NCBI GenBank assembly: GCA_017444245.1
Contig: JAFSXD010000001.1
Span: 1 to 61,049 of the forward strand
Source of the DNA: Selenomonadaceae bacterium
GTDB taxonomy: Bacteria; Bacillota; Negativicutes; Selenomonadales; Selenomonadaceae
DNA: 61,049 bases
Direction of reading: 5' to 3'
Made by a program: the position numbers and the translations under genes. Of the stretch, positions 12,941 through 60,368 are shown in pieces (positions within the stretch are counted from its first letter, which is position 1; each line of letters begins with the position of its first letter). The notes below the pieces were generated by a model. That model was not told the origin of the DNA. It worked only from the letters and a program-made list of their open reading frames with translations, and did no database searches.

Positions 12941-13536
12941 AAAGTTTCGTACTCTGTCAATAGTTTCAGCATATTCGGTGGTGTAAAGCAGTTTCTGCCC
13001 CCCCCCCCCGCGTAGAAAAGCGACGGGTCAGGTAGAATCACGTTTTGAAATTTGGTTGCGTGTGTAATTATGTTTAATCTCGAAAGGTCTACTTCCAAAA
13101 CTTGAAGAAGTTTTACAAAATTGGGAATTATGTTCTGTCCCATTAAATTTACTGCCAGCTTACAAGTTGAAAAGTATCTTTTGTAAGGATCGCTAGTCAA
13201 AAACCACAATCTTTTTATGTGATCTGTCAGACAATGCCCCCAAACAGAATTAAAAGTTCCAAGAAAAATCACAGTTTCTGGACTAATTCGTAAATCTTCA
13301 TTTGGAGTGTAAACGTCGCCAATGCCTTCATGGACTGAAGTTCCTTCTACGAAATTTCCTTTGCCGTCAATGATGCCACCGAAACCATTTAATCCAAGAC
13401 GACCATCTAAATCTAAGTGTGGCAAAATTGTTCCATTCTCGATAATTCGGAAATGCAATTTTTTATCGGAGAAATGAGTTTCGTTTAGCTTGTCGCCAAA
13501 AAATTCTCTGTTATACAAACCGTCGTAGTTTACCAT
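12871..13536 (-). CDS. N-terminal fragment of the GT61/DUF563 glycosyltransferase
   Basis: FLGTFNSVWGHCLTDHIKRLWFL is a GT61-type GH..D...RL motif. The tail after the G12 tract is out of frame. Confidence 0.7.
   Translation of the reverse strand: MVNYDGLYNREFFGDKLNETHFSDKKLHFRIIENGTILPHLDLDGRLGLNGFGGIIDGKGNFVEGTSVHEGIGDVYTPNEDLRISPETVIFLGTFNSVWGHCLTDHIKRLWFLTSDPYKRYFSTCKLAVNLMGQNIIPNFVKLLQVLEVDLSRLNIITHATKFQNVILPDPSLFYAGGGGRNCFTPPNMLKLLTEYETLCRKIFRHCRKKSSTFFTVLVNK
12998..13009 (-). repeat. homopolymer G12 (minus strand) that splits the GT61 gene
   Basis: I counted twelve C on the plus strand. The upstream frame reads ..LFYAGGGG then goes out of frame. G13 or G10 would join it to QKLLYTTEY.. 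Confidence 0.9.
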
Positions 13537-41984: not shown

Positions 41985-44900
41985 TTACTCCCAATGACGA
42001 TTGCCGGTGTTGACGGATTTAATATTCTGCCAGCCGCCGTTGCCGTCTGAAAGTCTGAAGTTGGTCTCTGTGCCGACACCCGTCACGACAACTCCGCCGC
42101 CGTCCTTAAGCACAACGTCGATTCTGCCGCTGGAAATAGCCGTCTTATCATTGTCGATGTCGTCCAAAGTTACGTCATAGAGCCAGACGAGGTCTTCAGT
42201 GCCAACAGTGGTAATCGTATCCGTGCTGGAACGGTAGACGCCTTCACTGGTGGTGTAGCCGTAGGACTTGAAGAAGAAGAAGGTCTCTTCGCCGCCGTTG
42301 CTACCAACGAGTGAATTGGTTTCGCCGCCGCCGCCCCACAGGCTCGTGGAAGTGTTGCTACCGCCGGACAAGATCGTATTGTTGGACGCGCCGCCCGCCA
42401 ATGTCAAATTGCCGTTCTGGACTGAAGACGCGTTGACCATTCCGATGCCGCCGTAGGAGACACTGTCAAGGCGTGAATCGTTCAGCCAAATGTTGACGTT
42501 GGACGTATCGGAGGAAACATTCAGAACGTCGCGCGGACGGCTGTTGCTTACGCCGCCATAGTAAATGTCGGTTTCGCCGTCATATGTGAAGGTGTTGACG
42601 CTGTTGCTGACACCAAACTTGATGTTGTAAATCTTGCTGTCGTTCGCAAATTGCGCTCTTACAGCTTTGTGATCGCTCGTCGTAAAGTCGCCGCTGATAA
42701 CAACAGTTTCGTCGCCCGAGAGGGAAACTTCCAATCTGGTTGAAGTCGCGCTGACGCCTTTGTAATTGTCACGATCGCCCAAGTACAGCAAGTCTGCCGA
42801 AGAAACGTTGACGTCTTGATCTTGACCCTTGTAGAAGTTGAATCCGGTAATCGTAGTTCTGCCGCTGCTGTAGGTTACGCCGTTAGAACTGCCGAAGTAG
42901 AAGTTGTTGCCGGATTTTGTAGTATCGTTGCCACCGGAAACGAGCACGTCATTGCCGCCGCCGACTGCAACATACTTGCGAGAACCTGCGTCTGCACTGC
43001 CGGAAACCGTAATGCTTTCGTTAGCACTTGAACCCCAAACAGTAGCTCTGGCTTCGCTTGCGACGTTGAGTTTCGTGATGTTGGAAAGTTTCGCAGAACC
43101 GAGCGTGACTTCAAACGCAGTGGTTACGGAATCAGTTACGTAAATGCCGCCGGCTTTTTCGCCTTTGTAGTAAGCACTCAAATCAGCATTCGTGCTAACC
43201 GTTGCCGTTGCATCAGGAGCGATGAAGGATACAGGCGTTCCGTTGACCAAGAATCTGTACGCGCCGTCAACCGTCGACAAACCGTTAAAGTTGATTGAAG
43301 CGTTGCCGCTGGAGGCTACAACAGCATCTCTCAATTTGAAGGAAAGGCTGTCAATGCTGTCCGCGAGCAGGACGTTTGCGCCGCTGTCCGCATCAAAGCC
43401 GCTCTTCCAACCGTAGACATCAGTCTTGCCGCTTGTGAGGGTAATCGTTGCGCCGCGTTGTCCCGATCCGCTGTCCGCACTTGCAAGCGAAACTGTATCA
43501 GTACCTGCGCCCGGATTAATCGTATCGTTAGGTCCTGCAACAATCGTGTCGTTCAAGGAAGAACCGACGACTGTATTTTCTGCGCCGCCGTTGATGCTGG
43601 AAATCATGAGCGCGCCGCCGTTGATTGTAATTTCGCTGGCGTCAAGCAGACTGCCATAGTTGCCCGCCCAGATAAGATTCTTTCTGTCGCCGACGTTCGC
43701 ATTTGTAATAATCGCCTTCGTTGCCGTAGCCGGATCGTAATCTGAACCGCCAACCGTAATTGTTGAGCCGTTAGCTATCGCAATCTTGTTGCCGTCAAGC
43801 TGAACGTTATCCGGAGTAAGTCTTGCACTGGTTGAAAGTTTCGTCGCAACGATAACGTCTCTGTCATCAAAGCTGTAGTCCGCAATTTCAAAAGCGTTCG
43901 TGTCATAGAAGTAGTCGATACCTGCGCCGCCTTCGATGTAATCTGAACCGGAACCGTAGATCGTATCAGAGCCCGAGCCGCCCAAAATGGTTGCCGCGCC
44001 GCCTCTGTTGTAAATGTACGAGCCATTGTCGCCAGCTTTGACGTAGTTGTTACCTGTCGCCTTAGGTCCAATCAAGATTGAAACATTTCTTGCGCTGGTG
44101 CTGCCAAGAATCGTGTGGTTGGTTGCGAATGCGGCAATATCGGAATCAGTATTCATACCGACAGCAATAAGGGTGTTCGGGCTACCGGTTGCGTCGATAA
44201 CCGCAGTGCGAATCGTGGAAACTCCCGTGCGCAGACCTTCAAGATATTCAACGTTAATCGGGTTGCTGATGTAGGACTGCAAGGTTATGTTGCGCGGGAA
44301 TGTGCCGTCAGCTGCACCAAGCGGTTCGTCGCCGTAAATGTTGACGCCCGTTCCTTGAGCAACAGTTTCAGGAGAATCAACCGTTGCACTTGCATAACCG
44401 GCAACTGTTCCATATGTCCCATCGAAAGCTTGCGTGGTTTCGTTATAAATGTTGTAGAAGTCGTGGAAAGCCTCAACCGTCGTGTTGCCGCCGTTCAAGC
44501 TGCTTGCCAACTGATTAACCAAGCTGTCGCGGTCGATACGGATTTGAGCAACAACAGAGTCTTCAGCAGTGACATTGCCGATGCTGTCAACATACAAGTA
44601 ACCGATACTGTCATTGACTTCAACCGTTGCACTTGAACCGACGCTGTAAACGCCCGCGCCAACCGTAATTGTTGAGTTCTTCGCAATGCCGCCGGTAATT
44701 GTGACATTCGGTTTTGCACTGCCGGATTTGCTTACGTACATCTGAATTGCGGATGCCGTTGAATCCAACACGCCGTCGCTACCGCCGTTCATGGTTACGC
44801 CAACGTCATTAATCGCCATAGCAACCGTATCTGTGGACGCCGCCATAGCTGAATCGTAAGTGAAGCCCGCCGCAAAGACGCTGTCGCTCGCAGTCTTGAC

Positions 44901-47276
44901 TGTGTCGCCAACCTTCAAGCCGCCGACGCTTACGATAGCATCATTTTCACCGGAAACGATGTAGGCACTGTCAAGGTTGGAGCTTGAAGATGCGCCCAAT
45001 GTGACTTCTGCCGCGTTAACCGTGACTTTAGCCGTACCGCCGGAAGAAACCGTAGAATCAATATCGTAGTAAACTGTGCCGCCGGTTACGCTGTAAGCAT
45101 CGCCGTCAACAACGTCGTTAACCGTGATTGAGGATGAGCCGCCAAGCGTGAAGTCAACCGCGCTAACTGTATTCGTAAGTTTCGATACGTCAAATTTATC
45201 GTTAATCGTGAAGTGGCTGTCGCCTGAAACCGTTGCGCCGGAGTTCAAACTCGTGATTCCTGCGAGACCCGCAACGGAAACGTCTGAATCGAGTTGTACA
45301 ACGATTTCATTATTGCTGTCGTGAGCAACGACACTTGCGCCGTTAAAGCTACCGCTAATTGTATTAGCTTCGCCGGCAACTGTTACTGTAGCGTCAGCCG
45401 CCATAACTTTCAAGGAATCGCCTGCGCCGAGTGATACACCTGCGCCGGTTGAATCCATAACTACCGCGCCGACTGATGCGCCCGAGACCGTCCAAGCTGT
45501 GCCCATAACTTCAACGCCGGAAAGTGTTGCACTGGAAGGTGCGCTGATTGTCATGTTGCCCGTCAAGCTGGAAACTGCGGAGACTGACGCGCCGTTTACA
45601 CTGCTTGCCGTGAGTATCGCATAGACGCTGTCCGTTGCTCTTGCAAATGTTGCAGTAACTCCGCCAACGTTAACTGTACGTGCGCCGCTACCGCCCTTTA
45701 CGAGCCAGTTGCTACCTTCGTTGAGTGCCGACGCTGCAGTTACGAGTGCTGAACTGTTGAGAGATACACTCTGTCCGCTGCTCACCGCAAGGGTATCGCC
45801 CGCCGCGCCTACAACTGTTCTTGCTTGACCGCCGGACAACAACATTGTGCCTGCGCCCGTACCGGAATTGACTGTGATGTTACCCGAAGCGTCGAGTACT
45901 GCATTAATCGTCGCGGCACTGTCATCTTCAAGATCAACATCCCAAGAAGAGCCGCTGATAATTCCCAAAGCATCGTGATCGCCGACCGCGTTAATTGTCA
46001 CGTTGCCGCTTTCAGGATTGAAGAGAGCCGCCTGCGCACCGGTGGCACCTGCTGTGATAGTGCCTTGCACGCTGTCAAACGCAACCGTATCATTACCGAG
46101 TTGAACAGCACCTGCACTGCTTGCAACTGTCCAACGTCCATTCGCCGCAAGAGCGTCAACCGCTTTGATTACGGATGAGTCAGTAGATTGACTTACGACA
46201 GAGGCGGTTGAACCGCTAGCAAGAGCAACTGCGCCGCCGCTTGCACCGTCGCCAACAGAGAACACGCCGGCATTGTTCGCATGCGCCGTCATCAACGTGC
46301 TGTCTACCGGGTAAACTTCCGCCTGCGTCGTAGCAACACCGTTGAGAATTACGCCGTTTACGTCTACTGTATCTCTGGGGCTTGAACCTGAACTTGAGAA
46401 TTCTACGCCTGCGCCATTTTCTACGTTCAACGCAAGATAATTGCCTGCGCCCTTAGTAGCCGTGAATGATTCGCCAACTGCGGCGGCACTCAAAGCACCA
46501 AATACTACGTTGTTGCCGTTAGATACGTTCCAAATTTGATTTGCGTCAACAGAAGAGAGCGCCGCATTGCCTGCCGCCTGAATCGTTACTGCGTCGTTTG
46601 AGTCTGTCGAACCTGTCAACGTAACCGCATTACTACTCAAAGAGACATTGATTGACGCGCCGTTAAGAGTTTGACGGAACTGTGCCGGTGCGGCAAGTGT
46701 AGCCTGCACTGCGCCGCGCAAGCTGGAATAATTTACGGCATTGTTGCTTGCCGTCATGCCAAGAGACGCGGCATTTGAAACAGCCACCGTATCAAGCAAG
46801 GAGTCATTGTTGGTATATCTGACCAAGAAAGTATCAGCTTCGCCGCCGCCGGTCAACCAGAGAGGACTGCTAACAGAGACATTCTCGGCGAACGTCAATT
46901 CTGGAGTAGTTGATCCTATTGAAGCTTCCTCAGCTGTGCCAACGCTGGCGTATCCGTAGGCTGTAACAGATTTATTTTCTCCCTTAGTGATTACAGCGGC
47001 ATTAGCCGGAACACTAGCCTCACCACTGCTGAAGGCGTAGACAGTTGCGGAAGAAGTTACCGTATCAGTGCGATAAATAACGCCGTCAACATCGACTGTA
47101 TCGCCTGTAACGGTCGTAGGTGTACCACTATCGTCGACGCCACCATTCACCGAAATAGCGCCACTGGATGCCCTGATGGTTGGGTTAGCGTCCAAAGCAA
47201 ACAGTTGCAAATCAAACTCCCAATTTTTCGTTGTCATAAAGAATGGCGTCAAGACCTCGTTACATGAGAGGGACAA
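41985..47276 (-). CDS. giant Gly/Ser/Thr/Ala/Val-rich surface/secreted protein with RTX-type GGxGxD repeats
   Basis: GGSGSDTIYGSGSDYIEGGAGIDYFYD is present and there are no Cys residues. The start is either the TTG at 47276 (11 nt after AAGGAGG) or the ATG at 47237 (MTTKNWEFDLQLFA..). The first ~80 codons of the track ORF lie in the leader. Confidence 0.75.
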   Translation of the reverse strand: MSLSCNEVLTPFFMTTKNWEFDLQLFALDANPTIRASSGAISVNGGVDDSGTPTTVTGDTVDVDGVIYRTDTVTSSATVYAFSSGEASVPANAAVITKGENKSVTAYGYASVGTAEEASIGSTTPELTFAENVSVSSPLWLTGGGEADTFLVRYTNNDSLLDTVAVSNAASLGMTASNNAVNYSSLRGAVQATLAAPAQFRQTLNGASINVSLSSNAVTLTGSTDSNDAVTIQAAGNAALSSVDANQIWNVSNGNNVVFGALSAAAVGESFTATKGAGNYLALNVENGAGVEFSSSGSSPRDTVDVNGVILNGVATTQAEVYPVDSTLMTAHANNAGVFSVGDGASGGAVALASGSTASVVSQSTDSSVIKAVDALAANGRWTVASSAGAVQLGNDTVAFDSVQGTITAGATGAQAALFNPESGNVTINAVGDHDALGIISGSSWDVDLEDDSAATINAVLDASGNITVNSGTGAGTMLLSGGQARTVVGAAGDTLAVSSGQSVSLNSSALVTAASALNEGSNWLVKGGSGARTVNVGGVTATFARATDSVYAILTASSVNGASVSAVSSLTGNMTISAPSSATLSGVEVMGTAWTVSGASVGAVVMDSTGAGVSLGAGDSLKVMAADATVTVAGEANTISGSFNGASVVAHDSNNEIVVQLDSDVSVAGLAGITSLNSGATVSGDSHFTINDKFDVSKLTNTVSAVDFTLGGSSSITVNDVVDGDAYSVTGGTVYYDIDSTVSSGGTAKVTVNAAEVTLGASSSSNLDSAYIVSGENDAIVSVGGLKVGDTVKTASDSVFAAGFTYDSAMAASTDTVAMAINDVGVTMNGGSDGVLDSTASAIQMYVSKSGSAKPNVTITGGIAKNSTITVGAGVYSVGSSATVEVNDSIGYLYVDSIGNVTAEDSVVAQIRIDRDSLVNQLASSLNGGNTTVEAFHDFYNIYNETTQAFDGTYGTVAGYASATVDSPETVAQGTGVNIYGDEPLGAADGTFPRNITLQSYISNPINVEYLEGLRTGVSTIRTAVIDATGSPNTLIAVGMNTDSDIAAFATNHTILGSTSARNVSILIGPKATGNNYVKAGDNGSYIYNRGGAATILGGSGSDTIYGSGSDYIEGGAGIDYFYDTNAFEIADYSFDDRDVIVATKLSTSARLTPDNVQLDGNKIAIANGSTITVGGSDYDPATATKAIITNANVGDRKNLIWAGNYGSLLDASEITINGGALMISSINGGAENTVVGSSLNDTIVAGPNDTINPGAGTDTVSLASADSGSGQRGATITLTSGKTDVYGWKSGFDADSGANVLLADSIDSLSFKLRDAVVASSGNASINFNGLSTVDGAYRFLVNGTPVSFIAPDATATVSTNADLSAYYKGEKAGGIYVTDSVTTAFEVTLGSAKLSNITKLNVASEARATVWGSSANESITVSGSADAGSRKYVAVGGGNDVLVSGGNDTTKSGNNFYFGSSNGVTYSSGRTTITGFNFYKGQDQDVNVSSADLLYLGDRDNYKGVSATSTRLEVSLSGDETVVISGDFTTSDHKAVRAQFANDSKIYNIKFGVSNSVNTFTYDGETDIYYGGVSNSRPRDVLNVSSDTSNVNIWLNDSRLDSVSYGGIGMVNASSVQNGNLTLAGGASNNTILSGGSNTSTSLWGGGGETNSLVGSNGGEETFFFFKSYGYTTSEGVYRSSTDTITTVGTEDLVWLYDVTLDDIDNDKTAISSGRIDVVLKDGGGVVVTGVGTETNFRLSDGNGGWQNIKSVNTGNRHWE

Positions 47277-47654
47277 GACGCACTCCACCTCCTTAAAACA
47301 TTTACAAAAAACTTTTCGCCGTTGAGGCGAGTGCGGGCTTTTTGACAATGCGTAGAAGTTGAACATACGCATTCCTAATCTTAGGGACGCCGCCCGATAG
47401 CGTTCATTAACGACGCTTGCGCTCTCCGCGAAGGAAGCTGAACTCGTCGATTCAAAAAATTTCTTACCCCTCCTTCTTGCGGATACGCACTGCGCCAAAT
47501 ATTTCATCCGACACCGCAAACCACGAAGTCGGCAGTAGATTAGAAATGGAACTCAAAGAAAGAGGATGAGTCCGCGACCAAGCTTTTGGCGAGTGATCAA
47601 TTCGCCGCCAGGTCAACACGTCGCCCGAGACCTCCTTGTCTCAATCGCGGCTAT

Positions 47655-51028: not shown

Positions 51029-51901
51029 TTAAATTCCTCCTGCCAAATTAATTTGCGGAAAATTTTCCAGCAAATTATTTTTTTGTGCAAGCCGATAAAA
51101 AATTTTCAGCGCGTCAATGCCTTCGTTCGTCAAATCCCATTTGATGACGCCGCCCAAATATTTATCCAACTCGTCAAAGGTAAACGGCTTTTCGTCCAAA
51201 ACGGAATTTATCGCCGCCGCCTTTTTCTGCAGACCGAATTTTAAACCTTCATGGATTTTTTTGCAAACTTTTTCAAGAAGTTCAGGAAAATCTTGGGCAA
51301 ATTTTTTTCGCGCCGCCCAAACAGCATAAACCATTTGCCGCCCCGTCAACTTATGCCATTCGTTGCCCAAATCGTAATAAAAAATTTTTTCCTGCCTGTG
51401 CAAGTGCAAGTAAAGTGCTTCGTCACCAATGAACAACGCGGCGGTTGCGTCACGCGGCACGGGATTTTTCACGTCTAAATTTTCTACGACGTAATTCGGT
51501 TTAAGATTGTAACTTTCCGCCAAAATTATTTTCAAAAGACAATGTGCCGTTGCAGACTTCGACGTTATCGCGACAATTTCGCCGTCCAAGCGTTCAATCG
51601 GTTTTCGCGAAAGCAACATTATGCTGGTGACGTTTCCTTCTGCGCGAATACAAATTTTCGGAACGAGCAAGAGATTTTCATTTTGGCGGGCGTATTCAAT
51701 CGACGACATTAAGGCAACGTCGAGAGAGCCGCTTTTCATCTGCGCGTTGACGAAAGCGGGAACGCCCATTGCAACCGAAAAAATTTTTGCGGCGTCCGTC
51801 GTGTAGAAATAATTCAGCGGCAGTACATTCAAAAAATTTATGTGACCAATTTTCGGTTTGTAATCGCTACTCAAAAAATTTTTCACTTCCCGACTATCCA
51901 T
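51029..51901 (-). CDS. mqnA: MqnA-type menaquinone (futalosine pathway) biosynthesis protein
   Basis: KIGHINFLNVLPL near the N-terminus, SSIEYAR, and periplasmic-binding-like fold pattern (PF02621-type, from memory). Confidence 0.65.
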   Translation of the reverse strand: MDSREVKNFLSSDYKPKIGHINFLNVLPLNYFYTTDAAKIFSVAMGVPAFVNAQMKSGSLDVALMSSIEYARQNENLLLVPKICIRAEGNVTSIMLLSRKPIERLDGEIVAITSKSATAHCLLKIILAESYNLKPNYVVENLDVKNPVPRDATAALFIGDEALYLHLHRQEKIFYYDLGNEWHKLTGRQMVYAVWAARKKFAQDFPELLEKVCKKIHEGLKFGLQKKAAAINSVLDEKPFTFDELDKYLGGVIKWDLTNEGIDALKIFYRLAQKNNLLENFPQINLAGGI

Positions 51902-52031
51902 CGATCCATCGATCTATCGATCCAACGATCTAACTTATGTGACCAATTTTCGGTTTGTAATCGCTACTCAAAAAATTTTTCGCTTCCCGACTATCCATCG
52001 ATCCATCGATCTATCGATCCAACGATCTAAC
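51838..52031. repeat. 2 x 97-bp tandem duplication covering the mqnA start, its RBS and the GATCGAT-type repeat
   Basis: 51838-51934 and 51935-52031 differ at one position (cacttcc vs cgcttcc). This explains the two track ORFs that both start MTNFRFVIATQKIF. Confidence 0.95.
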
Positions 52032-53862
52032 TTTGAATCCAAAGGAGTTGATATTTTTCCATTTGTTTCAAAACGTGATCGAAGAAAGGTTTTGAAGTGT
52101 CGGGGTGCGCCAAGAAAAGTGAATAAGTTTTTTCAAGCGGAACTATCAAAAGCTTTGCTTGCTCCGTCAAAACTTCGGCAGAAATAATTGTGCGGGGATT
52201 TTGAATAAAAACATTTTCGTTAATCCAACCGCCTTTAGAAATGATATCCAACGCCTTGAACCAACCGTCGCCCTTGTCCAAACTTCGCGCCAACTTTCCT
52301 TCGACGACGAAAATCAAATTTTCCCTCAAAATATCCCCGTAAATTCTGTCGCCTTCAAATTTCGTGACAAGTTGAGTGCTGTCCGCGAAGAAAGCCAACG
52401 TGCCGCCGCCGCTGCCTTGAAGTATCGGATGCTGTACGATGAAGTTTGAAATAGTTTTTTTGTCGTCCGAAGATTGAAATTGCCCGCCTTCTTCAGTTTC
52501 GATTTTCATTTGGTGCATGAGTTTTTCCATAAAAGTTTTGAACGGCGAATGCCAATGCACGAGCATTTGACGCAAGACGAGATTGTAAATTCGCGCGAAA
52601 CGTTCACCGGCGTTTTGGAAAAATTTATTGGCGTCGTAGAGGAAAGTTAAAGATAAAGTTGTTTCCGCGTACTGAAAATAAATTCCGAGCTTGACGCCCT
52701 GCGGATCCCATGAATTTGTCGTGACGACTGCGCCAAAAGGTTCTGCCTTCGTCTCTGAATAAGTTGCCTCCTTCGTCCCCTTGAAGTCGAGGAAACTAAG
52801 GAAGTGATCAAAAGTTTTTCCCTTCGTCAATTCTTGGAGCGTGTCCCAATCAGAAAAACCGTAGGGTTGCGACACGACGAGTTGACGAAACTGTTGCGTT
52901 ATGATTTGTTCGATTGTCATATCGTCGGGACTTTTTTGGCGCACGGGAATGACATTGAACGCGGACTCATTGCCCTTTGAACCGGCACTGAATTGACAGA
53001 AAATCACGTCGTCAAGCGTGCGCGTTGACTGCAGGAAAAATCCCCATGCACTTTGCAAAATCGTCATCAACATTACGCGGCTTGACTTTGCTTTTTCGCG
53101 CAGGTCGGACAAAATATCTGCGGGAATATTTTCACGAAACGCCTTCGGATTGTACGGCGCATTTGAATGTTTCGCGTAAGGTAACGTCGGCATTTGCGGT
53201 AAATCTTTCAAAAGTTTTGACCAGTAATCGCGAATTGCCGTTTCAACATTTTTTTGTTGTGTGCCGCCGGAAATTTTTTTGACGCGCTTAAATTTTTCTA
53301 TGCCCAATGCCGAAAGGAAAAAATTTTTTGGATCGAAGGCATTTGAAATTAACCGCGACATCGTGACGAGGACAGCAAATTCATTTTCTTCCGTCTTTAA
53401 GATTGTGAATCGGATTAAATTACCGCGCTTCACGTCGAAATTAACGCGGCGGTCGGCTTCCATGATTTTCGTTAAAGTTTCGTCAATTTCTTCAGGGTCT
53501 GCTTGCGAAAGCGCGCGATAAACGACATCTGGCAAAGTGCGCCGCTCAACGAAAATAACTCTGACGGTTCGGTTTTCGAGTTCGCAAAAATTTGAACGAA
53601 AGGTGTCGTCACTTTTAACCATGTCATGGACAACGCGATTAAATTTTATCGGCGTGATGTCGCCTTGAACTTTGTAAAGCGTCTGCACAGAAAAATAGGG
53701 CGATATAAATTGTTTCTGCGCGAAGAAAACTTTTTCGTCCGTCGTCAACTCCTCAACTTTTTCAATTTGGTTGGGATTGTAGCCGACAGAGCCGGTAAGT
53801 TGCCGCCCATAAACTGTCTCCAAAATATTTTTTTCGGTCGCCGTTAATTTCAAAATGCTCAT
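52027..53862 (-). CDS. condensation (NRPS C)-like domain lacking the HHxxxDG histidines, fused to a cNMP-binding-like C-terminal domain
   Basis: FAVLVTMSRLISNAFD sits where HHxxxDG is expected. RDYWSKLLKDLPQMPTLPY and MTILQSAWGFFL are C-domain-like. The C-terminal LIFVVEGKLARSLDKGDGWFKALDIISKGGWINE is a CAP-type beta-barrel pattern. Confidence 0.55.
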   Translation of the reverse strand: MSILKLTATEKNILETVYGRQLTGSVGYNPNQIEKVEELTTDEKVFFAQKQFISPYFSVQTLYKVQGDITPIKFNRVVHDMVKSDDTFRSNFCELENRTVRVIFVERRTLPDVVYRALSQADPEEIDETLTKIMEADRRVNFDVKRGNLIRFTILKTEENEFAVLVTMSRLISNAFDPKNFFLSALGIEKFKRVKKISGGTQQKNVETAIRDYWSKLLKDLPQMPTLPYAKHSNAPYNPKAFRENIPADILSDLREKAKSSRVMLMTILQSAWGFFLQSTRTLDDVIFCQFSAGSKGNESAFNVIPVRQKSPDDMTIEQIITQQFRQLVVSQPYGFSDWDTLQELTKGKTFDHFLSFLDFKGTKEATYSETKAEPFGAVVTTNSWDPQGVKLGIYFQYAETTLSLTFLYDANKFFQNAGERFARIYNLVLRQMLVHWHSPFKTFMEKLMHQMKIETEEGGQFQSSDDKKTISNFIVQHPILQGSGGGTLAFFADSTQLVTKFEGDRIYGDILRENLIFVVEGKLARSLDKGDGWFKALDIISKGGWINENVFIQNPRTIISAEVLTEQAKLLIVPLEKTYSLFLAHPDTSKPFFDHVLKQMEKYQLLWIQS

Positions 53863-54192: not shown

Positions 54193-54231
54193 AATAAAAA
54201 AAACTGACAACGAATTAAATCCGTCATCAGT
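54193..54231 (-). terminator. rho-independent terminator after the HPr-fusion gene
   Basis: On the minus strand: CTGATGACG-gatttaatt-CGTTGTCAG (imperfect stem) followed by TTTTTTTT. Confidence 0.5.
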
Positions 54232-54278
54232 TGGAAAAAGTTTAGTCAAAAAATTTCGTCAGAAAAAATCTCTCTGTA

Positions 54279-55961
54279 TCATGCCAAAACTTTTTTCAAG
54301 CCGTCAATGTATTCTTCCGTCGACGGCAAATAGATGTGTTGCCTGCTCTCAGCTACAGGTTCGGCAATTTCCGCAATAAGGTTGTATGCAAATTGCGGGC
54401 GATCTTTGGATGCGTACATGTCCTTCAAGGTATCGCCGTCCAACGTCTTACTAAGTTTATCGGCTATCGTGTCAGCTTCCGTTTTGTTAAGAATAAAATC
54501 AACTGAAACTGTCTGAAATTCATCTTCCAAAATCTTGCACATTTTCTTGCTGTCATCTTCGATAATTTCATCGGTTACAGCTTTTGAAACTTTGCTTGCC
54601 GCAGTGCTCGATAACCAAGCAGCAATTAACATTCCTACTGGTCCAAAGGGAGCACCCAACATCGCGCCGCCAATTCCGCCTGCGACTCCTGCGCCAGAGT
54701 TCACAACATTTTTGAAAAGTTGAGACGCCGAAATTCTGCCGCGAAGAATATTTATCACGTCGCCCGCTGACATAATCGCAACCGTTGCAATTCCCGTGAC
54801 AGCATTCCCGCGCAGTAACTTAGACGCACTTTTCATTGCCGCCGCCCCGTAAATACTCGTGCCTTCTCTGAAAGCATTCACCAAATGTGCTGACATCTTC
54901 GGACCCATAGCTTTAACGAGTGCATCGGACGCAGGAATAAGCATTGTGTTGAAGCCCGCCTTCGTAATTTGTCCCGCTACAATCGAACCTGCCCATGCCA
55001 TGCCGCCGACTTGCAAGCCCGCTTTAACCGAATTTTCCAAAGCAACTTCAAAAGATTCACCGTTCCAAATGCAAACCGCAAAATTTATCGCCGCAGAAAT
55101 TCCGCCACTGTACGCGCCAATTTTTATTCCGTCTATCGCGTCATAAGTCAATGATTCGATTGTTCCCGCCTTCGCAATATTTTTTGCCTGCTCGTAAGTC
55201 ACATTGCCTTTGCGGATAATGTCTTCAGCTTTTTTGACGCCGCGAATTTGTCCTCTATCAATTCGACTTTGCATTGCTCTAACCGCGTCGTCGTACTTAT
55301 CGGCGGGAACTTCAATTTGCATTGGCGAACCGTCACGATTGTAATAGCGAAATTCTCCGTTGTGGAAACATTCTTGAACACACTTTGAGCCGGTGGCACA
55401 GTACTTGCTTTGAATGTTCGCGCCGTTTACGAGTCTGTCCGCACCGTTTTTAGCGTTGTCGTCGCCGACAATGTGTGCGTCTTTGCCTGTCATTCTGTCG
55501 TACAAGTCATTGGCGCGTTCTGCGGCAAAACCATGCCCCTTTGAACCGTGAAATTTTTCTTCAAAGTAAACCTTTTCTGTACCAACAAAAGCACCTTGTG
55601 CAAGTCCTGTATTTTTTGCGCCGCGTGAAGGTTCATTATTTGAAAAATGAAACCCTTCCGCACTTTCTTCTTCCTCTTCAAGATCAACAAAATAGCCTTC
55701 TTCGCCGAACCTGCTATCTACGAGTCTCTTCAAAGTTTTCACTGCCTCGTATTCGTCAGGTCCATCCGCCGCGATAGTAATTTCCGTGCCTTTAGTCAAG
55801 CCCATGCTCATAATCATGAGAATACTTTTCGCGTCAACTCTTTTGCCTTTCGCTTTAATCCAAACTTTTGATTTGAACTTGGACGCAGTCTGCACGAACA
55901 CCGACGCGGGGCGCGCATGAATACCGGTTTTGTTTTCGATAGTAGTTGTAAGCTCAAACAT
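54279..55961 (-). CDS. HPr (PTS phosphocarrier) domain fused to a ~470-aa domain of unknown function with a Gly/Ala-rich membrane-active-looking C-terminal half
   Basis: The N-terminal 88 aa align to HPr: KTGIHARPASVFVQTASKF (His15), VDAKSILMIMSMGLTKG (Ser46), EITIAADGPDE. Next comes KGHGFAAERANDLYDRMTG..GDDNAKNGADRLVNGANIQSKYC, followed by GGISAAINF.., AGLQVGGMAWAGSIVAG.. and GAGVAGGIGGAMLGAPFGPVG. Confidence 0.8.
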   Translation of the reverse strand: MFELTTTIENKTGIHARPASVFVQTASKFKSKVWIKAKGKRVDAKSILMIMSMGLTKGTEITIAADGPDEYEAVKTLKRLVDSRFGEEGYFVDLEEEEESAEGFHFSNNEPSRGAKNTGLAQGAFVGTEKVYFEEKFHGSKGHGFAAERANDLYDRMTGKDAHIVGDDNAKNGADRLVNGANIQSKYCATGSKCVQECFHNGEFRYYNRDGSPMQIEVPADKYDDAVRAMQSRIDRGQIRGVKKAEDIIRKGNVTYEQAKNIAKAGTIESLTYDAIDGIKIGAYSGGISAAINFAVCIWNGESFEVALENSVKAGLQVGGMAWAGSIVAGQITKAGFNTMLIPASDALVKAMGPKMSAHLVNAFREGTSIYGAAAMKSASKLLRGNAVTGIATVAIMSAGDVINILRGRISASQLFKNVVNSGAGVAGGIGGAMLGAPFGPVGMLIAAWLSSTAASKVSKAVTDEIIEDDSKKMCKILEDEFQTVSVDFILNKTEADTIADKLSKTLDGDTLKDMYASKDRPQFAYNLIAEIAEPVAESRQHIYLPSTEEYIDGLKKVLA

Positions 55962-56019
55962 AAAATCCCTCCTTCACATTAACCAAAACTTATGAAATTA
56001 CGCAACATTCCTGCATTTT

Positions 56020-56049
56020 ATTCTACCCCCCCCCTCAAAGATTTGTCAA
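56020..56049 (-). promoter_or_regulatory. promoter of the HPr-fusion gene with a G9 tract in the spacer
   Basis: On the minus strand: TTGACA (56049-56044), aatctttga, G9, then TAGAAT (56025-56020). The spacer is 18 nt. A 58-nt leader ends in AAGGAGG and the ATG at 55961. Confidence 0.65.
56026..56034 (-). repeat. homopolymer G9 (minus strand) inside the promoter spacer
   Basis: I counted nine C on the plus strand (56026-56034). Confidence 0.95.
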
Positions 56050-56093: not shown

Positions 56094-56432
56094 TTAGTTT
56101 GCAAAATACTCCGCGATTTTCCAGCCCGCCGATTCAACCATTGCAACGGTCAAGATGCTTGGATGTATCATTGGACATGAAATTGGAATCCACATTCTCT
56201 TGGACAGGAATTGTTTGTTAAGTTTCTCCTGCGCAATCTTTGTTGCAAGAGTTTCTGAAATTGTAACATTGGAAACTTTTACCAACGCCATCGTCATTGT
56301 CGTAAGTGCTTTTTCGTCGACCGCGTCAAGCTCATAGGGTATCATTATATGATTTTTCCCCGACAACACGTCACGCGCATGGTGTTTAATGACGTCTTCG
56401 CACTGATGTTTTTCGGCTTTTGTCATCGCCAT
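56094..56432 (-). CDS. small DUF697-like paralog A (112 aa)
   Basis: MAMTKAEKHQCEDVI.. ..MVESAGWKIAEYFAN. It shares its termini and leader with paralog B. The DUF697 assignment is from memory of the family pattern. Confidence 0.65.
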   Translation of the reverse strand: MAMTKAEKHQCEDVIKHHARDVLSGKNHIMIPYELDAVDEKALTTMTMALVKVSNVTISETLATKIAQEKLNKQFLSKRMWIPISCPMIHPSILTVAMVESAGWKIAEYFAN

Positions 56433-56640
56433 GAAACATTCCTCCTCTGTGTGACTGAAAAATAATTTACCTGTGCATAAGATACAACAATCGCAATTTC
56501 ATTTTGTAATTGTCATTTCCCCATTCAGAAAATTTTTCACGGTTTAATAAATGTGAAGGAGCGCACGTCCTTGTACGCCCCCTCAACCCAAGTTCAAGTG
56601 CTGAACAGTATCCGTTTTCATGAAGAAATTTTAGTGGAGA

Positions 56641-56829
56641 CTATTTCATTTGTTTCAATTTTTCATCGTAGTATTTCACTCTGGCGTAATGTCTTTTTGC
56701 AATGCCATAGTGTGGACCTGCCTCAACGTCGTTGGACGCATTTTTAGCCGCCGCCCATTCGCGTTTGGCATTTTTCAAAGCACGATCCCGCGCACTTTCC
56801 GCAAGTTCACGCTTTCTTTCTTCCGTCAT
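56641..56829 (-). CDS. small charged helical protein (62 aa)
   Basis: MTEERKRELAESARDRALKNAKREW.. with an AAAGGAGGTG RBS. The track ORF starts further upstream, inside paralog B. Confidence 0.5.
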   Translation of the reverse strand: MTEERKRELAESARDRALKNAKREWAAAKNASNDVEAGPHYGIAKRHYARVKYYDEKLKQMK

Positions 56830-56833
56830 ATTT

Positions 56834-57184
56834 TCACCTCCTTTGATTCGCAAAATTTTCCGCGATTTGCCAACCCGCCGATTCAATCATTGTGACAGTC
56901 AACGCTGCTGATGCAATGTTTCCAAGTCCGGGAAAAATTTTCACGAACTCTGAAACAACCATTTTGCCTGCCAATTCTTTCAACGCGTTAACCGCCGTAG
57001 TTGCGGCAAGAGTTTCTGACATTGAAACGTTGAAAGTGTTTGCCAATGCCATCGTCATCGTCGTAAGTGCCGCCACGTTAATCGGCGTGCCGACTCCAGG
57101 TATCAGTGAACCACCAATGACAGCCCACGCGTGACCGTGAATGATGTCTTCGCACTGATGTTTTTCGGCTTTTGTCATCGCCAT
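56834..57184 (-). CDS. small DUF697-like paralog B (116 aa)
   Basis: MAMTKAEKHQCEDII..GGSLIPGVGTPINVAALTTMTMALA..FPGLGNIASAALTVTMIESAGWQIAENFANQRR. Confidence 0.65.
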   Translation of the reverse strand: MAMTKAEKHQCEDIIHGHAWAVIGGSLIPGVGTPINVAALTTMTMALANTFNVSMSETLAATTAVNALKELAGKMVVSEFVKIFPGLGNIASAALTVTMIESAGWQIAENFANQRR

Positions 57185-57393
57185 GAAACATTCCTCCTCT
57201 TTGTGACTGAAAAAATAATTTACCTGTACATAAGATACAACAATCGCAATTTCATTTTGTAATTGTCATTTCCCTATTCAGAAAATTTTTCACGGTTTAA
57301 TAAATGTGAAGGAGCGCACGTCCTTGTACGCCCCCTCAACTCAAGTTCAAGTGTTGAACAGTCTCCGTTTTCGTGAAGAAATTTTAGTGGAGA

Positions 57394-57450
57394 CTATTTC
57401 ATTTGTTTCAATTTTTCTTCGTAGTACTTTCTACTTCGGCGTATCTTTTG
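57394..57450 (-). pseudogene. decayed remnant of a second copy of the 62-aa gene
   Basis: The 3' end ctatttcatttgtttcaattttt.. is identical to 56641-56663. After that it diverges, with an internal deletion. Confidence 0.55.
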
Positions 57451-57461
57451 CCGTCCTGTCG

Positions 57462-57821
57462 TTAACTCCTTTGATTTGCAAAATTCTCCGCGATTTGCCA
57501 ACCCGCCATTTCAACCCTTTTATAAGCCGTTGGGTCAATCACCATAGGGATAAAACAAAATGGGAACATCAGAGGCTTCATCAACCCTGTTATCAACCCT
57601 GAAACGAAGGGCAATTTAGCCAATTCTTCTTCGACGTTTTTCAGCGCGTTAACCGCCGTAGTGTTAGCAAGAGCTTCCGTCATCGAAACGTTGAAAACTT
57701 TTGCAAGAGCCAGCGTCATTTTTGTGAGTTCTGCCAAATTCACAGGCGCGCAACCAATCACAGCGGCACACTTGCAAATGATGTCCTTGCACAATTTTTT
57801 TTCAGCCTTTGTAATTTTCAT
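57462..57821 (-). CDS. small DUF697-like paralog C (119 aa)
   Basis: MKITKAEKKLCKDII.. ..VEMAGWQIAENFANQRS. Confidence 0.6.
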   Translation of the reverse strand: MKITKAEKKLCKDIICKCAAVIGCAPVNLAELTKMTLALAKVFNVSMTEALANTTAVNALKNVEEELAKLPFVSGLITGLMKPLMFPFCFIPMVIDPTAYKRVEMAGWQIAENFANQRS

Positions 57822-57909
57822 AAAAACTTCTCCAATCGATTAAGTGAAAAGTTATCTTCGACGCGCCCCGCGCATTTTGTACGAGGACGCGTTTTTTTTC
57901 TTCCGTCAA

Positions 57910-58269
57910 TTATTGACGTCTTTGATGCGCAAAATCTTCTGCCATTTGCCAGCCCGCCAATTCAACCGTTGTGCATGTCAACGAAACCGGCAAAGTCTCT
58001 CCCCTGTTGGGAAATTTTTCTATGTACTCTCTAACATTGATTCTGCGTTCAACTTCTTTCAGCATGTTAACCGCCGTAATTGTTGCAAGAGTTTTAGTCA
58101 TTGAAACCTTAAACATTTTCGCCAACGTCCGCGTCATCTTTGTAATTTCTTCCAGATTAACGGTAGGACCAAATTTTGTTTTGAGCGATCCGCCGATGGA
58201 ATGCTTTGTGTGATAGCGAATGATTTGTTCACATTTTTGACGTTCGGCTTTGGTAATCAACGTTCTCAT
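57910..58269 (-). CDS. small DUF697-like paralog D (119 aa)
   Basis: ..ITKAERQKCEQII.. ..VELAGWQMAEDFAHQRRQ. Confidence 0.6.
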   Translation of the reverse strand: MRTLITKAERQKCEQIIRYHTKHSIGGSLKTKFGPTVNLEEITKMTRTLAKMFKVSMTKTLATITAVNMLKEVERRINVREYIEKFPNRGETLPVSLTCTTVELAGWQMAEDFAHQRRQ

Positions 58270-58315: not shown

Positions 58316-58579
58316 TTACTGTGAAAATTTGTCAACGAGCAAGTCGAAAATATTTCTTGCCAAATCACGCGGCGTGTGTGACAAATCCGCGCCCTTCGAC
58401 CTGTTGTCGTGTTTGCACATCGCCTGCAAGTTCCAATCGCTGTCCGGTCCGCCGTATTTTTGCGGGATAATGTGATCCACGTCCATTTCGGACTTTCTGA
58501 AATTCTTTCCGCACTCGGGGCATTTGTGCCAGCCGCCGTGCGTTTTGTGCGAATCGAAGTAGTCTTTCCTGTAACCCAT
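58316..58579 (-). CDS. mini HNH endonuclease (87 aa)
   Basis: CPECGKNF..MDVDHIIPQKYGGPDSDWNLQAMCKHDNRSKG. The ATG at 58579 follows an AGAGGAGGAAA RBS. Confidence 0.8.
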   Translation of the reverse strand: MGYRKDYFDSHKTHGGWHKCPECGKNFRKSEMDVDHIIPQKYGGPDSDWNLQAMCKHDNRSKGADLSHTPRDLARNIFDLLVDKFSQ

Positions 58580-58739
58580 AAAAAAATTTCCTCCTCTGTA
58601 AATCACCAAAAAATTCATTTAAAGTTGCTTGCAATATTCAGTTTTCAAAGAACCCTTCAAAAAAGTTTTTACTTTTCTGTTGTCGAGCGTCGAAGTATTT
58701 GTCGCCGACCGCTGTTGAAACCTCCTACTGTAATAATAA

Positions 58740-59015: not shown

Positions 59016-59093
59016 AAACTTTCTTTGTGGGCAGGAAATTTTAGCCGCCGTAAAGAATTAAACAAAAAACTTTTCATTGGGGGGAAAAATTTT

Positions 59094-60368
59094 ATGGGTT
59101 TAATTCAAGCGGCGATTAGTGCTGTCGGCGGAACGCTCGGAGATCAATGGAAGGAACTTTTCTATTGTGACAGTTTAGGCGCGGATATTTTGGCGGCAAA
59201 AGGACATCGTCGCACGCGCAGAGGAAGTTCCAACGCCGGCGACGATAACATCATTACGGACGGGTCGCTTATCTCCGTGAACAACGGGCAATGCATGATG
59301 ATCGTTGAGCAAGGAAAAGTTGTAGACTTCTGCGCGGAGCCCGGCGAATACACGTACGACAAAGGAACTGCGCCTTCGCTTTTCTCCGGTGGCAGTCTCG
59401 CTTCAAACATTCAAGCAGTTTTTCATGAAATTGGCAGACGTTTCACTTTCGGCGGCGACACGGGAAAAGATCAGCGCATTTACTATTTCAACACGAAAGA
59501 AATTGTCGGCAACAAGTACGGTACGCCGAGCCCCGTTCCCTTCCGCGTCGTCGATTACAATATCGGCTTGGACGTGGACATTGCGATAAAATGTTTTGGT
59601 TCGTACAGCTACAAGATCGTCAATCCGATTTTGTTTTACACAAACGTTTGCGGCAACGTGGCAGAAACTTATAATCGTTCGGAAATTGATGCGCAGTTGA
59701 AAACGGAATTGATGACGGCGTTGCAACCTGCCTTCGCAAAAATTTCTGAAATGGGCATTCGTTACAGCGCACTGCCGGGACATACTCAAGAAATTGCCGA
59801 CGCGTTGAACGAAGTCTTAAGCAAGAAATGGGGCGAACTGCGCGGCTTGCAAGTCGTATCTTTCGGCGTCTCCAACGTCAGCGCAAGCGAAGAAGATGCC
59901 GCAATGATTAAGGAAATGCAACGTAACGGCGCATTGAGAAATCCGGCAATGGCGGCGGCTCATTTGACGGGCGCACAAGCAAGCGCAATGCAAGCGGCGG
60001 CGAACAACACGGCAGGCGCAATGACAGGATTCATGGGCATGGGCATGGCGCAGAACGCAGGCGGTGCTAATCCCGCAAATCTTTTCGCTATGGCTCAACA
60101 ACAAACTCAACCTCAACAGAATCAACCGCCCACATGGAAATGTCCGTCTTGCGGCAACGAAGGCAATCGAGGAAATTTCTGCATGAATTGCGGCGCAAAA
60201 AAACCTGCACCTGTCGCCGGTTGGAAATGCGAATGCGGCGCGACCAATACAGGAAGATTCTGTTCAGAGTGCGGCAAACCGAAACCTGCTTCAGACGAAT
60301 GGACTTGTTCATGCGGCGCAGTCAACAAAGGAAAATTCTGCGCGGAATGCGGAAAACCCAGAGCGTAA
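59094..60368 (+). CDS. SPFH-domain protein of the COG4260/YdjI type with three C-terminal zinc ribbons
   Basis: MGLIQAAISAVGGTLGDQWKE.. Then CPSCGNEGNRGNFCMNCG, CECGATNTGRFCSECG and CSCGAVNKGKFCAECG. The ATG at 59094 follows a GGGGGG run. Confidence 0.75.
   Translation: MGLIQAAISAVGGTLGDQWKELFYCDSLGADILAAKGHRRTRRGSSNAGDDNIITDGSLISVNNGQCMMIVEQGKVVDFCAEPGEYTYDKGTAPSLFSGGSLASNIQAVFHEIGRRFTFGGDTGKDQRIYYFNTKEIVGNKYGTPSPVPFRVVDYNIGLDVDIAIKCFGSYSYKIVNPILFYTNVCGNVAETYNRSEIDAQLKTELMTALQPAFAKISEMGIRYSALPGHTQEIADALNEVLSKKWGELRGLQVVSFGVSNVSASEEDAAMIKEMQRNGALRNPAMAAAHLTGAQASAMQAAANNTAGAMTGFMGMGMAQNAGGANPANLFAMAQQQTQPQQNQPPTWKCPSCGNEGNRGNFCMNCGAKKPAPVAGWKCECGATNTGRFCSECGKPKPASDEWTCSCGAVNKGKFCAECGKPRA

Follow-up and report, generated by a model that had tools for sequence, protein, structure and literature searches.

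HPr (PtsH) of the phosphotransferase system (PTS) is a central hub of the signalling that controls carbon metabolism in bacteria. As far as the family libraries that we searched show, its domain is otherwise fused to PTS modules only, and for the known HPr fusions, namely FPr, DhaM and the multiphosphoryl transfer proteins, NCBIfam lists PTS partners (EIIA, DhaM). Here, we describe a gene found in a stretch of 61,049 nucleotides from a Selenomonadaceae bacterium (contig JAFSXD010000001.1 of GenBank assembly GCA_017444245.1, positions 1 to 61,049, hereafter the window), in which a complete HPr domain, bona fide by profile, residues and fold over residues 1 to 88, is joined through an acidic linker to a non-PTS partner, the YeeR_C core (PF27347). 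According to our analysis, HPr-YeeR_C is a new domain architecture in a catalogued Pfam family without described function. We found no description in the literature of this architecture, nor of its siblings presented below, in which the same core carries the acyl carrier protein (ACP) AcpP or EF-Tu.

A comparable design is known from Shedu (SduA), where a variable N-terminal sensor is joined to a conserved PD-(D/E)xK nuclease. Shedu and the YeeR_C proteins follow the same logic of a hypervariable terminal domain placed on a constant putative nuclease within a single protein, although Shedu shows no sequence relationship to YeeR_C, which also has no PADLOC match, and YeeR_C adds about 290 residues comprising Gly/Ala-rich helices, a glycine zipper and a helical bundle. 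Closer in sequence is the enterobacterial protein YeeR, which shares the PF27347 core with the window gene; the Klebsiella protein, of 838 amino acids, has a different N-terminal region of about 400 amino acids. The Klebsiella locus consists of a GTPase gene, cah/agn43, yeeR and irmA, so that yeeR lies between the autotransporter gene and irmA, as in CP4-44-type islands. In E. coli, yeeR is cotranscribed with the phase-variable, Dam/OxyR-switched agn43 (PMC4807369). Since the function of YeeR is not established (PMC4807369, PMC11551758), membership of YeeR_C by itself gives no mechanism.

An intact HPr domain at the N terminus

The gene occupies positions 54279 to 55961 on the minus strand as a single uninterrupted open reading frame (ORF) of 560 amino acids with an ATG start; the plus strand of the same stretch contains many stops. 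An earlier note, made from the letters of this DNA, had the coordinates right and did not give the strand. It had also proposed a complete HPr with both phosphorylation contexts intact, followed by an acidic linker, and both proposals agree with what we found. The Pfam profile PTS-HPr (PF00381) matches residues 5 to 82 (E 1.8e-30, 105.3 bits against a cut-off of 23) and TIGR01003 matches residues 1 to 81 (E 3.6e-31, 107 bits against a cut-off of 47.9), both above their curated cut-offs over the full domain. His15 and Arg17 lie within GIHARPA and Ser46 lies within DAKSILMIMSMGL, each in an intact context. When the HPr part of the AlphaFold model, where the predicted local distance difference test (pLDDT) is modest, was compared with solved structures by Foldseek, it matched many HPr structures with probability 1.0 and a template modelling score, relative to the target, of 0.62 to 0.72; the closest solved structure is the HPr of T. 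tengcongensis, at 55% identity. The domain departs from HPr as otherwise encountered, either free-standing at about 88 amino acids or fused to PTS modules only, in being attached to a YeeR_C core of 435 amino acids.

The fused HPr is up to 88% identical to free HPr proteins of Selenomonadaceae/Quinella, which are 88 amino acids long, and in a related Selenomonad contig (L090) the free ptsH lies between argG and ptsI. From this length, identity and gene context we deem the fused HPr to be an additional copy that arose by duplication of the HPr of the lineage, and the position of ptsI after the free ptsH implies that Enzyme I (EI) exists in these relatives. Residues 5 to 33 and 43 to 55, which include the His15 and Ser46 surfaces contacted by EI and HPrK/P, are identical in the fused HPr and in 111 free HPr proteins. 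Six substitutions (T2F, A4L, Q34W, T41R, A71Y and K84R) are common to both fusion proteins known to us and rare or absent in free HPr (n = 111), and all six map outside the His15 and Ser46 regions. This distribution suggests that partner recognition has been preserved in the fusion and that a new surface may have evolved, perhaps for docking on the core. Past ...RFGEE, where free HPr ends, the ORF runs into the acidic stretch GYFVDLEEEEESAEG, and the linker LEEEEESAEG is predicted to be disordered (pLDDT below 50 over residues 86 to 108). The parts of the gene, with the evidence used to delimit them, are as follows.

55698 to 55961, minus strand: HPr domain, residues 1 to 88 (Pfam, TIGR01003, Foldseek, ratio of nonsynonymous to synonymous substitution rates [dN/dS])
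55917 to 55919, minus strand: codon of His15
55824 to 55826, minus strand: codon of Ser46
55587 to 55697, minus strand: acidic disordered linker (EEGYFVDLEEEEESAEG...), residues 89 to 125 (pLDDT, dN/dS)
55158 to 55586, minus strand: alpha/beta head, residues 126 to 268 (alignments, AlphaFold)
54762 to 55157, minus strand: four long Gly/Ala-rich amphipathic helices, residues 269 to 400 (AlphaFold, Kyte-Doolittle)
54564 to 54761, minus strand: glycine-zipper segment AGVAGGIGGAMLGAPFGPVGMLIAAWL, a candidate membrane hairpin, residues 401 to 466 (Kyte-Doolittle, homologues)
54282 to 54563, minus strand: C-terminal helical domain, residues 467 to 560 (AlphaFold, dN/dS)
54279 to 54281, minus strand: stop codon

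A real fusion maintained by selection

A protein of 548 amino acids (P0005), encoded in another ENA assembly, shows the same HPr plus YeeR_C architecture. The contig on which it lies (L001) runs collinear with the window and has the same promoter, the same 5' region and the same Condensation-domain gene downstream; the longest matching segments are 83 to 84% identical at the amino acid level, and HPr is joined at the same point in the two assemblies, ...RFGE being followed by the acidic linker. An assembly or frameshift error joining ptsH to a separate gene, for which we found no supporting point, is ruled out by this independent orthologue, its conserved flanks and the substitution pattern described below; moreover, the free ptsH of relatives sits elsewhere, in the order argG-ptsH-ptsI, and the window holds no second copy of either HPr or YeeR_C. 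We regard the residual chance of such an error as negligible, and the earlier note's claim of a genuine fusion, which named this error as its refutation, has stood the check.

Comparison of the window gene with P0005, the one gene pair on which all the selection figures rest, gave a dN/dS of 0.054 at a dS of 0.64 for HPr, of 0.12 to 0.37 for the domains of the core and of 0.74 for the linker, which also carries a 9-residue indel. The HPr part is therefore kept by selection inside the fusion. These figures bear on a second explanation, according to which the fusion is a neutral or decaying accident, that is, a recent read-through of a duplicated ptsH into a YeeR_C gene that left the HPr part functionless. 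The rarity of the architecture speaks for it: across all the collections searched, there are two such sequences only. No further HPr-YeeR_C fusion was present among the best 80 of 145 YeeR_C loci in GTDB species genomes, a scan of JGI metagenomes with fusion-specific peptides returned only the free 88-amino-acid HPr, and the window protein itself is not on record. A close paralogue from a metagenome-assembled genome (MAG) is, in addition, frameshifted. Yet an HPr without function would not be expected to show such a low dN/dS next to a near-neutral linker, nor six derived substitutions common to both orthologues, and the ORF, Shine-Dalgarno sequence, promoter and terminator are intact in both assemblies. 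An accident is thus already disfavoured, and we hold it to be very improbable.

The YeeR_C core

Residues 90 to 560 had no match in Pfam, NCBIfam, PADLOC or PDB-sequence searches. A homology search with the core recovered 2,378 relatives, and all of those listed carry PF27347; among the best 120, the label is present in 120 of 120, with E values down to 5e-250 and 90 to 100% coverage. The assignment to YeeR_C was thus made through the precomputed Pfam labels of homologues rather than by a direct score of the model. When representatives clustered at 50% identity were searched exhaustively, 1,287 clusters had E values of 1e-3 or below. The members belong mainly to Bacillota (Selenomonadaceae, Phascolarctobacterium, Lachnospiraceae, Oscillospiraceae, clostridia and bacilli), and others occur in Synergistota, Desulfovibrio, Bacteroides, cyanobacteria and Enterobacteriaceae. 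Residues from about 126 to 560 align with YeeR of E. coli and Klebsiella at 33 to 34% identity (E about 1e-52). Our literature search found no paper that names PF27347. The earlier note had asked for homologues lacking HPr as a guide to the ancestral context, and indeed most YeeR_C members are without HPr and carry other terminal modules instead.

The AlphaFold model, built on an alignment of 68 sequences, is of high confidence for residues 120 to 400 and 467 to 560 and of low confidence for residues 401 to 467. The full model, compared by Foldseek with PDB and BFVD, had significant matches to HPr only. The head motifs GHGFAAE, GAD, IQSKY and IEVP, which are invariant columns in four alignments, together with the Gly-rich helical region, are those that characterise YeeR_C. 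The conserved soluble module that the earlier note had marked, KGHGFAAERANDLYDR...GDDNAKNGADRLVNGANIQSKYC, is accordingly present, with its key residues invariant in homologues, and the Gly/Ala-rich amphipathic or transmembrane-like region was recovered by hydropathy and AlphaFold at about residues 269 to 466.

Among the 50 most divergent head domains, the invariant positions include the glutamate of (A)AE, the aspartate of G[A/P]D, the glutamine and lysine of QxKY and the glutamate of E(V)P, corresponding to E148 (GHGFAAE helix), D175 (GAD), Q184-x-K186-Y187 and E217 (IEVP, strand 4). The modelled head (pLDDT 82) has the order a-b-b-b-a-b-a-b-a, which fits the alpha-beta-beta-beta-alpha-beta core of PD-(D/E)xK nucleases. 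E148 is predicted on helix 1 (residues 142 to 157), D175 just before strand 2 (176 to 178), Q184 in strand 3 (181 to 185) and K186 directly after it, so that in the model the layout of the residues matches the classical PD-(D/E)xK order in its D...QxK variant. With the PD-(D/E)xK enzymes Mrr, MspJI and Hjc, the head shares the glutamate on the helix, the aspartate at the start of strand 2 and the QxK on strand 3, and the GIDG...YVQAKRW of E. coli Mrr may be compared with its D...QxK; it differs from these enzymes in its additional invariant E217 and a Cys-rich loop, and the similarity is not significant. In a Foldseek search of the head against PDB, the best match was Hjc at E 0.5, and about one-third of the top 50 were PD-(D/E)xK proteins (including seven Hjc chains, YaeQ, three MspJI chains, CdiA-CT, I-Ssp6803I, PspGI and SPARDA), none of them significant. 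We consider it fairly probable that the head is restriction endonuclease-like and catalytically competent.

Behind the head, AlphaFold places helices at residues 268 to 299, 304 to 334, 342 to 364 and 372 to 397, each of about 23 to 32 residues, in a block with pLDDT of about 70 to 90. Residues 269 to 400 are moderately hydrophobic, with Kyte-Doolittle maxima of 1.0 to 1.7 and interspersed charges. The glycine-zipper segment reaches a Kyte-Doolittle maximum of 1.55 at low pLDDT; at this region, homologues show weak matches to Gly-zipper_Omp, DUF1269 and C19orf12, and a Lactococcus homologue is annotated by NCBI as a glycine zipper family protein. The UniProt name of E. coli YeeR points to the inner membrane. 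Judging from hydropathy, with maxima of 1.55 to 1.67, and from the glycine-zipper similarity, the helices and the glycine zipper are probably attached to the cytoplasmic membrane or embedded in it. The C-terminal domain consists of helices in the AlphaFold model (block pLDDT 82 to 96), shows a dN/dS of 0.12 and contains the invariant residues D469, D470, M474, E495 and M515.

A membrane-associated core could serve mainly as an anchor or scaffold, in which case the protein would be a membrane-tethered HPr paralogue acting locally on a transporter or in PTS-dependent regulation, whether as donor or sink of phosphoryl groups or as regulator. The intact catalytic residues of HPr and the existence of EI in related Selenomonads are consistent with this role, as is the lack of a signal peptide; with the two most hydrophobic segments taken as hairpins, the N terminus would be cytoplasmic. 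The gene moreover has chromosomal housekeeping genes around it, pfk among them, and one relative adjoins a PTS EIIABC gene. A mere anchor, however, would hardly call for the invariant, catalytic-looking residues of the head or for purifying selection on the C-terminal domain; unrelated modules sit on the same core in relatives, no PTS neighbour is conserved, and the fusion is extremely rare. We therefore find the anchor role distinctly unlikely.

Exchange of terminal modules and the role proposed for HPr

Most close relatives of the window gene lack HPr and carry a Zn-ribbon, a short N-terminal leader or an N-terminal domain of about 165 amino acids without assigned family. Elsewhere in the family, the core is combined with Sel1 (10 cases), TPR, Ank, TerD, TerB, microbial PARG, ADP-ribosylglycohydrolase (ARH), FGE-sulfatase, DUF6273, DUF805, rubredoxin-like and RnfB-type Fe-S domains. 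Two further combinations involve whole housekeeping proteins. P0001, whose core is 84% identical to that of the window gene, carries two tandem AcpP domains of the fatty acid synthase type, which match solved ACPs at E 1.7e-23 and retain the serine of DSL, and P0061 and P0074 carry, at about residues 495 to 766, genuine C-terminal EF-Tu domains I and II, which match solved EF-Tu at E 3e-100 and read DCPEH or DCPKH in place of DCPGH at switch II. The gene of the ACP fusion is at a different chromosomal locus, adjoining homologues of the window genes at 24.1 to 25.7 kb. The head and helices of the window gene are closest to those of ACP-fused and module-less variants (85 to 94%), and its C-terminal domain is closest to that of the HPr orthologue (78%), a regional mosaic which suggests recent shuffling of modules on a common core.

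Two side observations were made in the same set of relatives. The N terminus of P0027 and P0049 (residues 1 to 120) gives a sub-threshold match to PEP-utilisers_N (E 0.002), the HPr-binding domain of Enzyme I, which, if real, would be a second PTS-related module on the core. In a goat-rumen Selenomonadaceae MAG, a Zn-ribbon YeeR_C gene (L047, about 560 to 2058) is frameshifted near GHGFAAE and is either a pseudogene or affected by a sequencing error.

Since one constant, enzyme-like core carries many alternative terminal modules, we read HPr as the input and the YeeR_C core as the output of a single-chain sensor-effector with a role in conflict or stress, a reading that we prefer and nevertheless hold tentatively. 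The presence of a whole ACP or EF-Tu on the same core in relatives makes HPr probably a sensor module. A duplicated, complete HPr copy would have lost its stop codon and become tethered to the core by a floppy acidic linker, keeping every residue of the surfaces for Enzyme I, HPrK/P and other HPr partners. Depending on the state of HPr, which may be phosphorylated at His15 or Ser46 or be bound by an HPr-binding factor, the core would then stay inactive or be set free. Where phosphorylation is the signal, EI (at His15) or HPrK/P (at Ser46) would report the energy and carbon state of the cell and thereby gate the core. Control of a membrane-associated activity by phosphorylation state is plausible because the EI and HPrK/P contact regions are unchanged relative to the 111 free HPr proteins and because ptsI follows the free ptsH in a relative. 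As output, the head may act as a nuclease, the glycine-zipper helices may perturb the membrane, or both may occur, and the cell would stop growing or die; expression appears to be stochastic, from a promoter with a poly-G tract in the spacer. The likely role of the protein would be in conflict or stress, of the kind seen in abortive infection or growth arrest, and not in sugar transport. We infer the gating by HPr state, the membrane association, the nuclease chemistry and the conflict role from the features presented above.

The AcpP and EF-Tu siblings invite comparison with the integrated decoys of immune receptors, such as RRS1-WRKY among the plant nucleotide-binding leucine-rich repeat (NLR) receptors. 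On this explanation, a phage or toxin factor acting on the host HPr would also act on the tethered copy and so trigger the effector, and the siblings with two AcpP domains or EF-Tu would likewise guard other central host proteins. What the window gene shares with RRS1-WRKY and with the bacterial bNACHT11 is a near-copy of a central host protein joined to a conserved output module: its HPr and the free HPr of the lineage are 88% identical, and it has siblings with AcpP and EF-Tu. It differs from these receptors in having no NLR or STAND (signal transduction ATPases with numerous domains) ATPase, and an immune role for YeeR_C would be hypothetical. The integrated-decoy idea has been raised for bNACHT11, a bacterial NLR-related sensor (PMC11702601). 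Three abundant housekeeping proteins occur as whole copies on the same core over a short evolutionary distance (HPr, AcpP twice, EF-Tu domains I and II); EF-Tu is altered in switch II, and of a decoy one would expect loss of the switch with the shape retained, and the strong purifying selection on HPr is what a mimic requires. The siblings and the damaged switch II favour a common logic of guarding a hub protein, the mosaic of core regions among HPr, ACP and module-less variants suggests module swapping, and the family is associated with WYL regulators. On the other side, no phage factor that targets HPr is known in these bacteria, most members carry generic modules (Zn-ribbon, repeats) and not copies of host proteins, and no member has a known defence phenotype or a PADLOC match. 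The fully intact active site of HPr fits genuine phosphotransfer as well, and hence both phospho-gating and a decoy. Taken together, we consider the decoy explanation somewhat unlikely. Its extension to the family, in which YeeR_C proteins would be widespread, unrecognised single-protein immune or stress effectors, some with hub-protein decoys (HPr, AcpP, EF-Tu) that detect phage or toxin factors, and would respond through the nuclease-like head and membrane-active helices, we regard as unlikely.

A poly-G tract in the promoter

The sensor-effector that we propose would probably be subject to phase-variable expression. The signals identified around the gene are as follows.

56020 to 56049, minus strand: sigma-70-like promoter (consensus scan, 11 of 12 positions; conserved in L001)
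56049 to 56044, minus strand: -35 element TTGACA, followed by an 18-nucleotide spacer
56025 to 56020, minus strand: -10 element TAGAAT
56026 to 56034, minus strand: G9 tract in the promoter spacer (C9 on the plus strand), a candidate slipped-strand phase-variation switch
55968 to 55974, minus strand: Shine-Dalgarno sequence AAGGAGG, 6 nucleotides 5' of the ATG (read from the sequence)
54202 to 54232, minus strand: intrinsic-terminator-like hairpin and T-run downstream of the gene (14-bp stem, then TTTTTTTTATTT)

With its own promoter, Shine-Dalgarno sequence and terminator-like hairpin, the gene looks monocistronic. In the orthologue L001, the tract is G10, the spacer has 19 nucleotides and the -10 element is TATAAT; the locus of a Selenomonad YeeR_C paralogue (L083) reads TTGACA..G11..TATACT, and no comparable G tract was found upstream at the other 78 YeeR_C loci checked. 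Phase variation by a homopolymer in the promoter spacer is known from the poly-G tracts of Neisseria porA and opc. The window gene shares with these a G tract between good hexamers whose length differs between orthologues (G9 versus G10, with two to three alleles seen); here, the comparison is between two orthologue alleles and is known from sequence alone. As a homopolymer in the promoter spacer is the signature of a contingency locus, expression is probably phase-variable. Control of a phase-variable type is then a feature of both the window gene, through its poly-G promoter, and E. coli yeeR, through the agn43 operon.

The window contains three runs of at least nine G or C; the other two interrupt ORFs, one of them of a glycosyltransferase. 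The C12 at 12998 to 13009, within 12341 to 13536 (minus strand), is located where overlapping ORFs of 221 and 199 amino acids meet, and as the downstream ORF matches Glyco_transf_61, the pair resembles a glycosyltransferase gene with phase variation through frameshifting. The G9 at 9351 to 9359, within 7536 to 10234 (minus strand), lies in the overlap of ORFs of 641 and 324 amino acids without family match, which are probably one gene of about 900 codons split by a slippery tract. At the locus of the ACP fusion (P0001, L002 1924 to 3807), there is a C9 6 nucleotides before the called start and a G12 155 nucleotides upstream; translation begun at an upstream ribosome-binding site and ATG would cross the C tract, which may act as a phase switch at the level of translation.

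Genomic neighbourhood

The window is chromosomal, as carB, purM, purC, mutL, addB, pfk, mqnA and a gene of the uracil-DNA glycosylase family show. Eighty YeeR_C loci were compared by clustering crude ORF calls. A regulator with helix-turn-helix (HTH), WYL and WCX domains occurs in the flanks of 15 of the 80, in 11 of these at gene position -1 or -2; an XRE regulator is near 9 of the 80, and a TerB-like protein is at -1 in 4. A WYL gene also precedes the YeeR_C homologue on a Lactococcus plasmid. WYL regulators typically accompany or control phage-defence systems (PMC9122601, PMC9122588, PMC11662680). Upstream of YeeR_C in 12 of the 80 loci (L035, L038, L042, L048, L050, L052, L055, L056, L058, L059, L063 and L079), mostly at -1 and in two loci at -2, there is a protein of about 110 to 140 amino acids without family (115 in one form) with the motif TT..DFPF(L/F)A, which may be a partner, a regulator or an immunity protein in a subfamily.

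At the window locus, the gene directly downstream of HPr-YeeR_C (52027 to 53862, minus strand) encodes a stand-alone protein of 611 amino acids with a nonribosomal peptide synthetase Condensation domain (E 1e-20) and a weakly cyclic nucleotide-binding-like C terminus; its position is conserved in L001, and terminator-like and promoter-like sites lie between the two genes. Between it and the mqnA-like gene, a 97-bp unit is tandemly duplicated (51835 to 52028, 98%), each copy ending in short repeats of the ATCGATC type. Upstream of HPr-YeeR_C, positions 56094 to 58269 (minus strand, including 56641 to 56886) hold four tandem paralogues of about 112 to 119 amino acids, 32 to 52% identical to the first, with conserved MxxTKAEK...C and ESAGWQIAENFANQRR ends. 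The array has interleaved repeat blocks (56458 to 57429), with a 219-nucleotide repeat at 96% identity and repeated hairpins, and also holds at least one ORF of about 80 amino acids. The four paralogues had no match in Pfam, NCBIfam or PADLOC. They were rejected as YeeR_C partners, being unrelated to the core and to the partner families at other loci. Directly upstream of the array is a gene for a small HNH endonuclease (58316 to 58618, minus strand, E 1e-12), and divergent from this, at 59025 to 60368 (plus strand), one for an SPFH/Band_7_1 protein with a weak C-terminal zinc-ribbon match; the two may form a small variable islet beside the HPr-YeeR_C gene. Farther away, an ORF of 1,844 amino acids (41985 to 47519, minus strand) has no Pfam or NCBIfam match, and an ORF of 643 amino acids (24493 to 26424, minus strand) has no Pfam match.

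Weight of the evidence and significance

Several observations weigh against the sensor-effector reading, and they concern each of its parts. As to the family, E. coli YeeR is stated to be uncharacterised (PMC4807369, PMC11551758; also PMC6480617), and we found no experiments on any YeeR_C protein in the literature. As to a role in defence, the neighbours of close relatives are unrelated housekeeping genes and not obvious defence islands, PADLOC-DB v2 gave no match to a defence model (LeoBC at E 0.14 is noise), and YeeR_C is rare in phages, with 6 IMG/VR contigs and 1 GenBank phage record. The nuclease fold of the head is assigned without statistical support (best Foldseek E 0.5): profile searches against PDB returned nothing significant for the head, a search of 50 head domains against Pfam at E values up to 10 returned nothing significant, one domain giving CDI_toxin_EC869_like at E 0.021, and an hhalign comparison of the head with the catalytic domain of E. 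coli Mrr was negative. True membrane insertion is uncertain, since hydrophobicity is modest and charged residues interrupt the helices. AlphaFold gives no confident contact between HPr and the core, the alignment being shallow for HPr, and selection was measured on one pair because only two HPr fusions are known.

Through a selected fusion of HPr to an effector core from outside the PTS, HPr signalling, or mimicry of HPr, would reach a new output. With copies of AcpP and EF-Tu on the same core, the pattern resembles the integrated decoys of plant immune receptors. The fusion also provides a testable handle on YeeR_C, which has more than 1,200 clusters at 50% identity, includes the E. coli gene and has a conserved, catalytic-looking site, and there is a real but unproven chance of a new sensing principle. 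If there is indeed a decoy class, the window gene would be the first HPr-based decoy, phages of rumen Selenomonads would be expected to manipulate HPr, and yeeR, a gene of the E. coli y-ome, would acquire a function.

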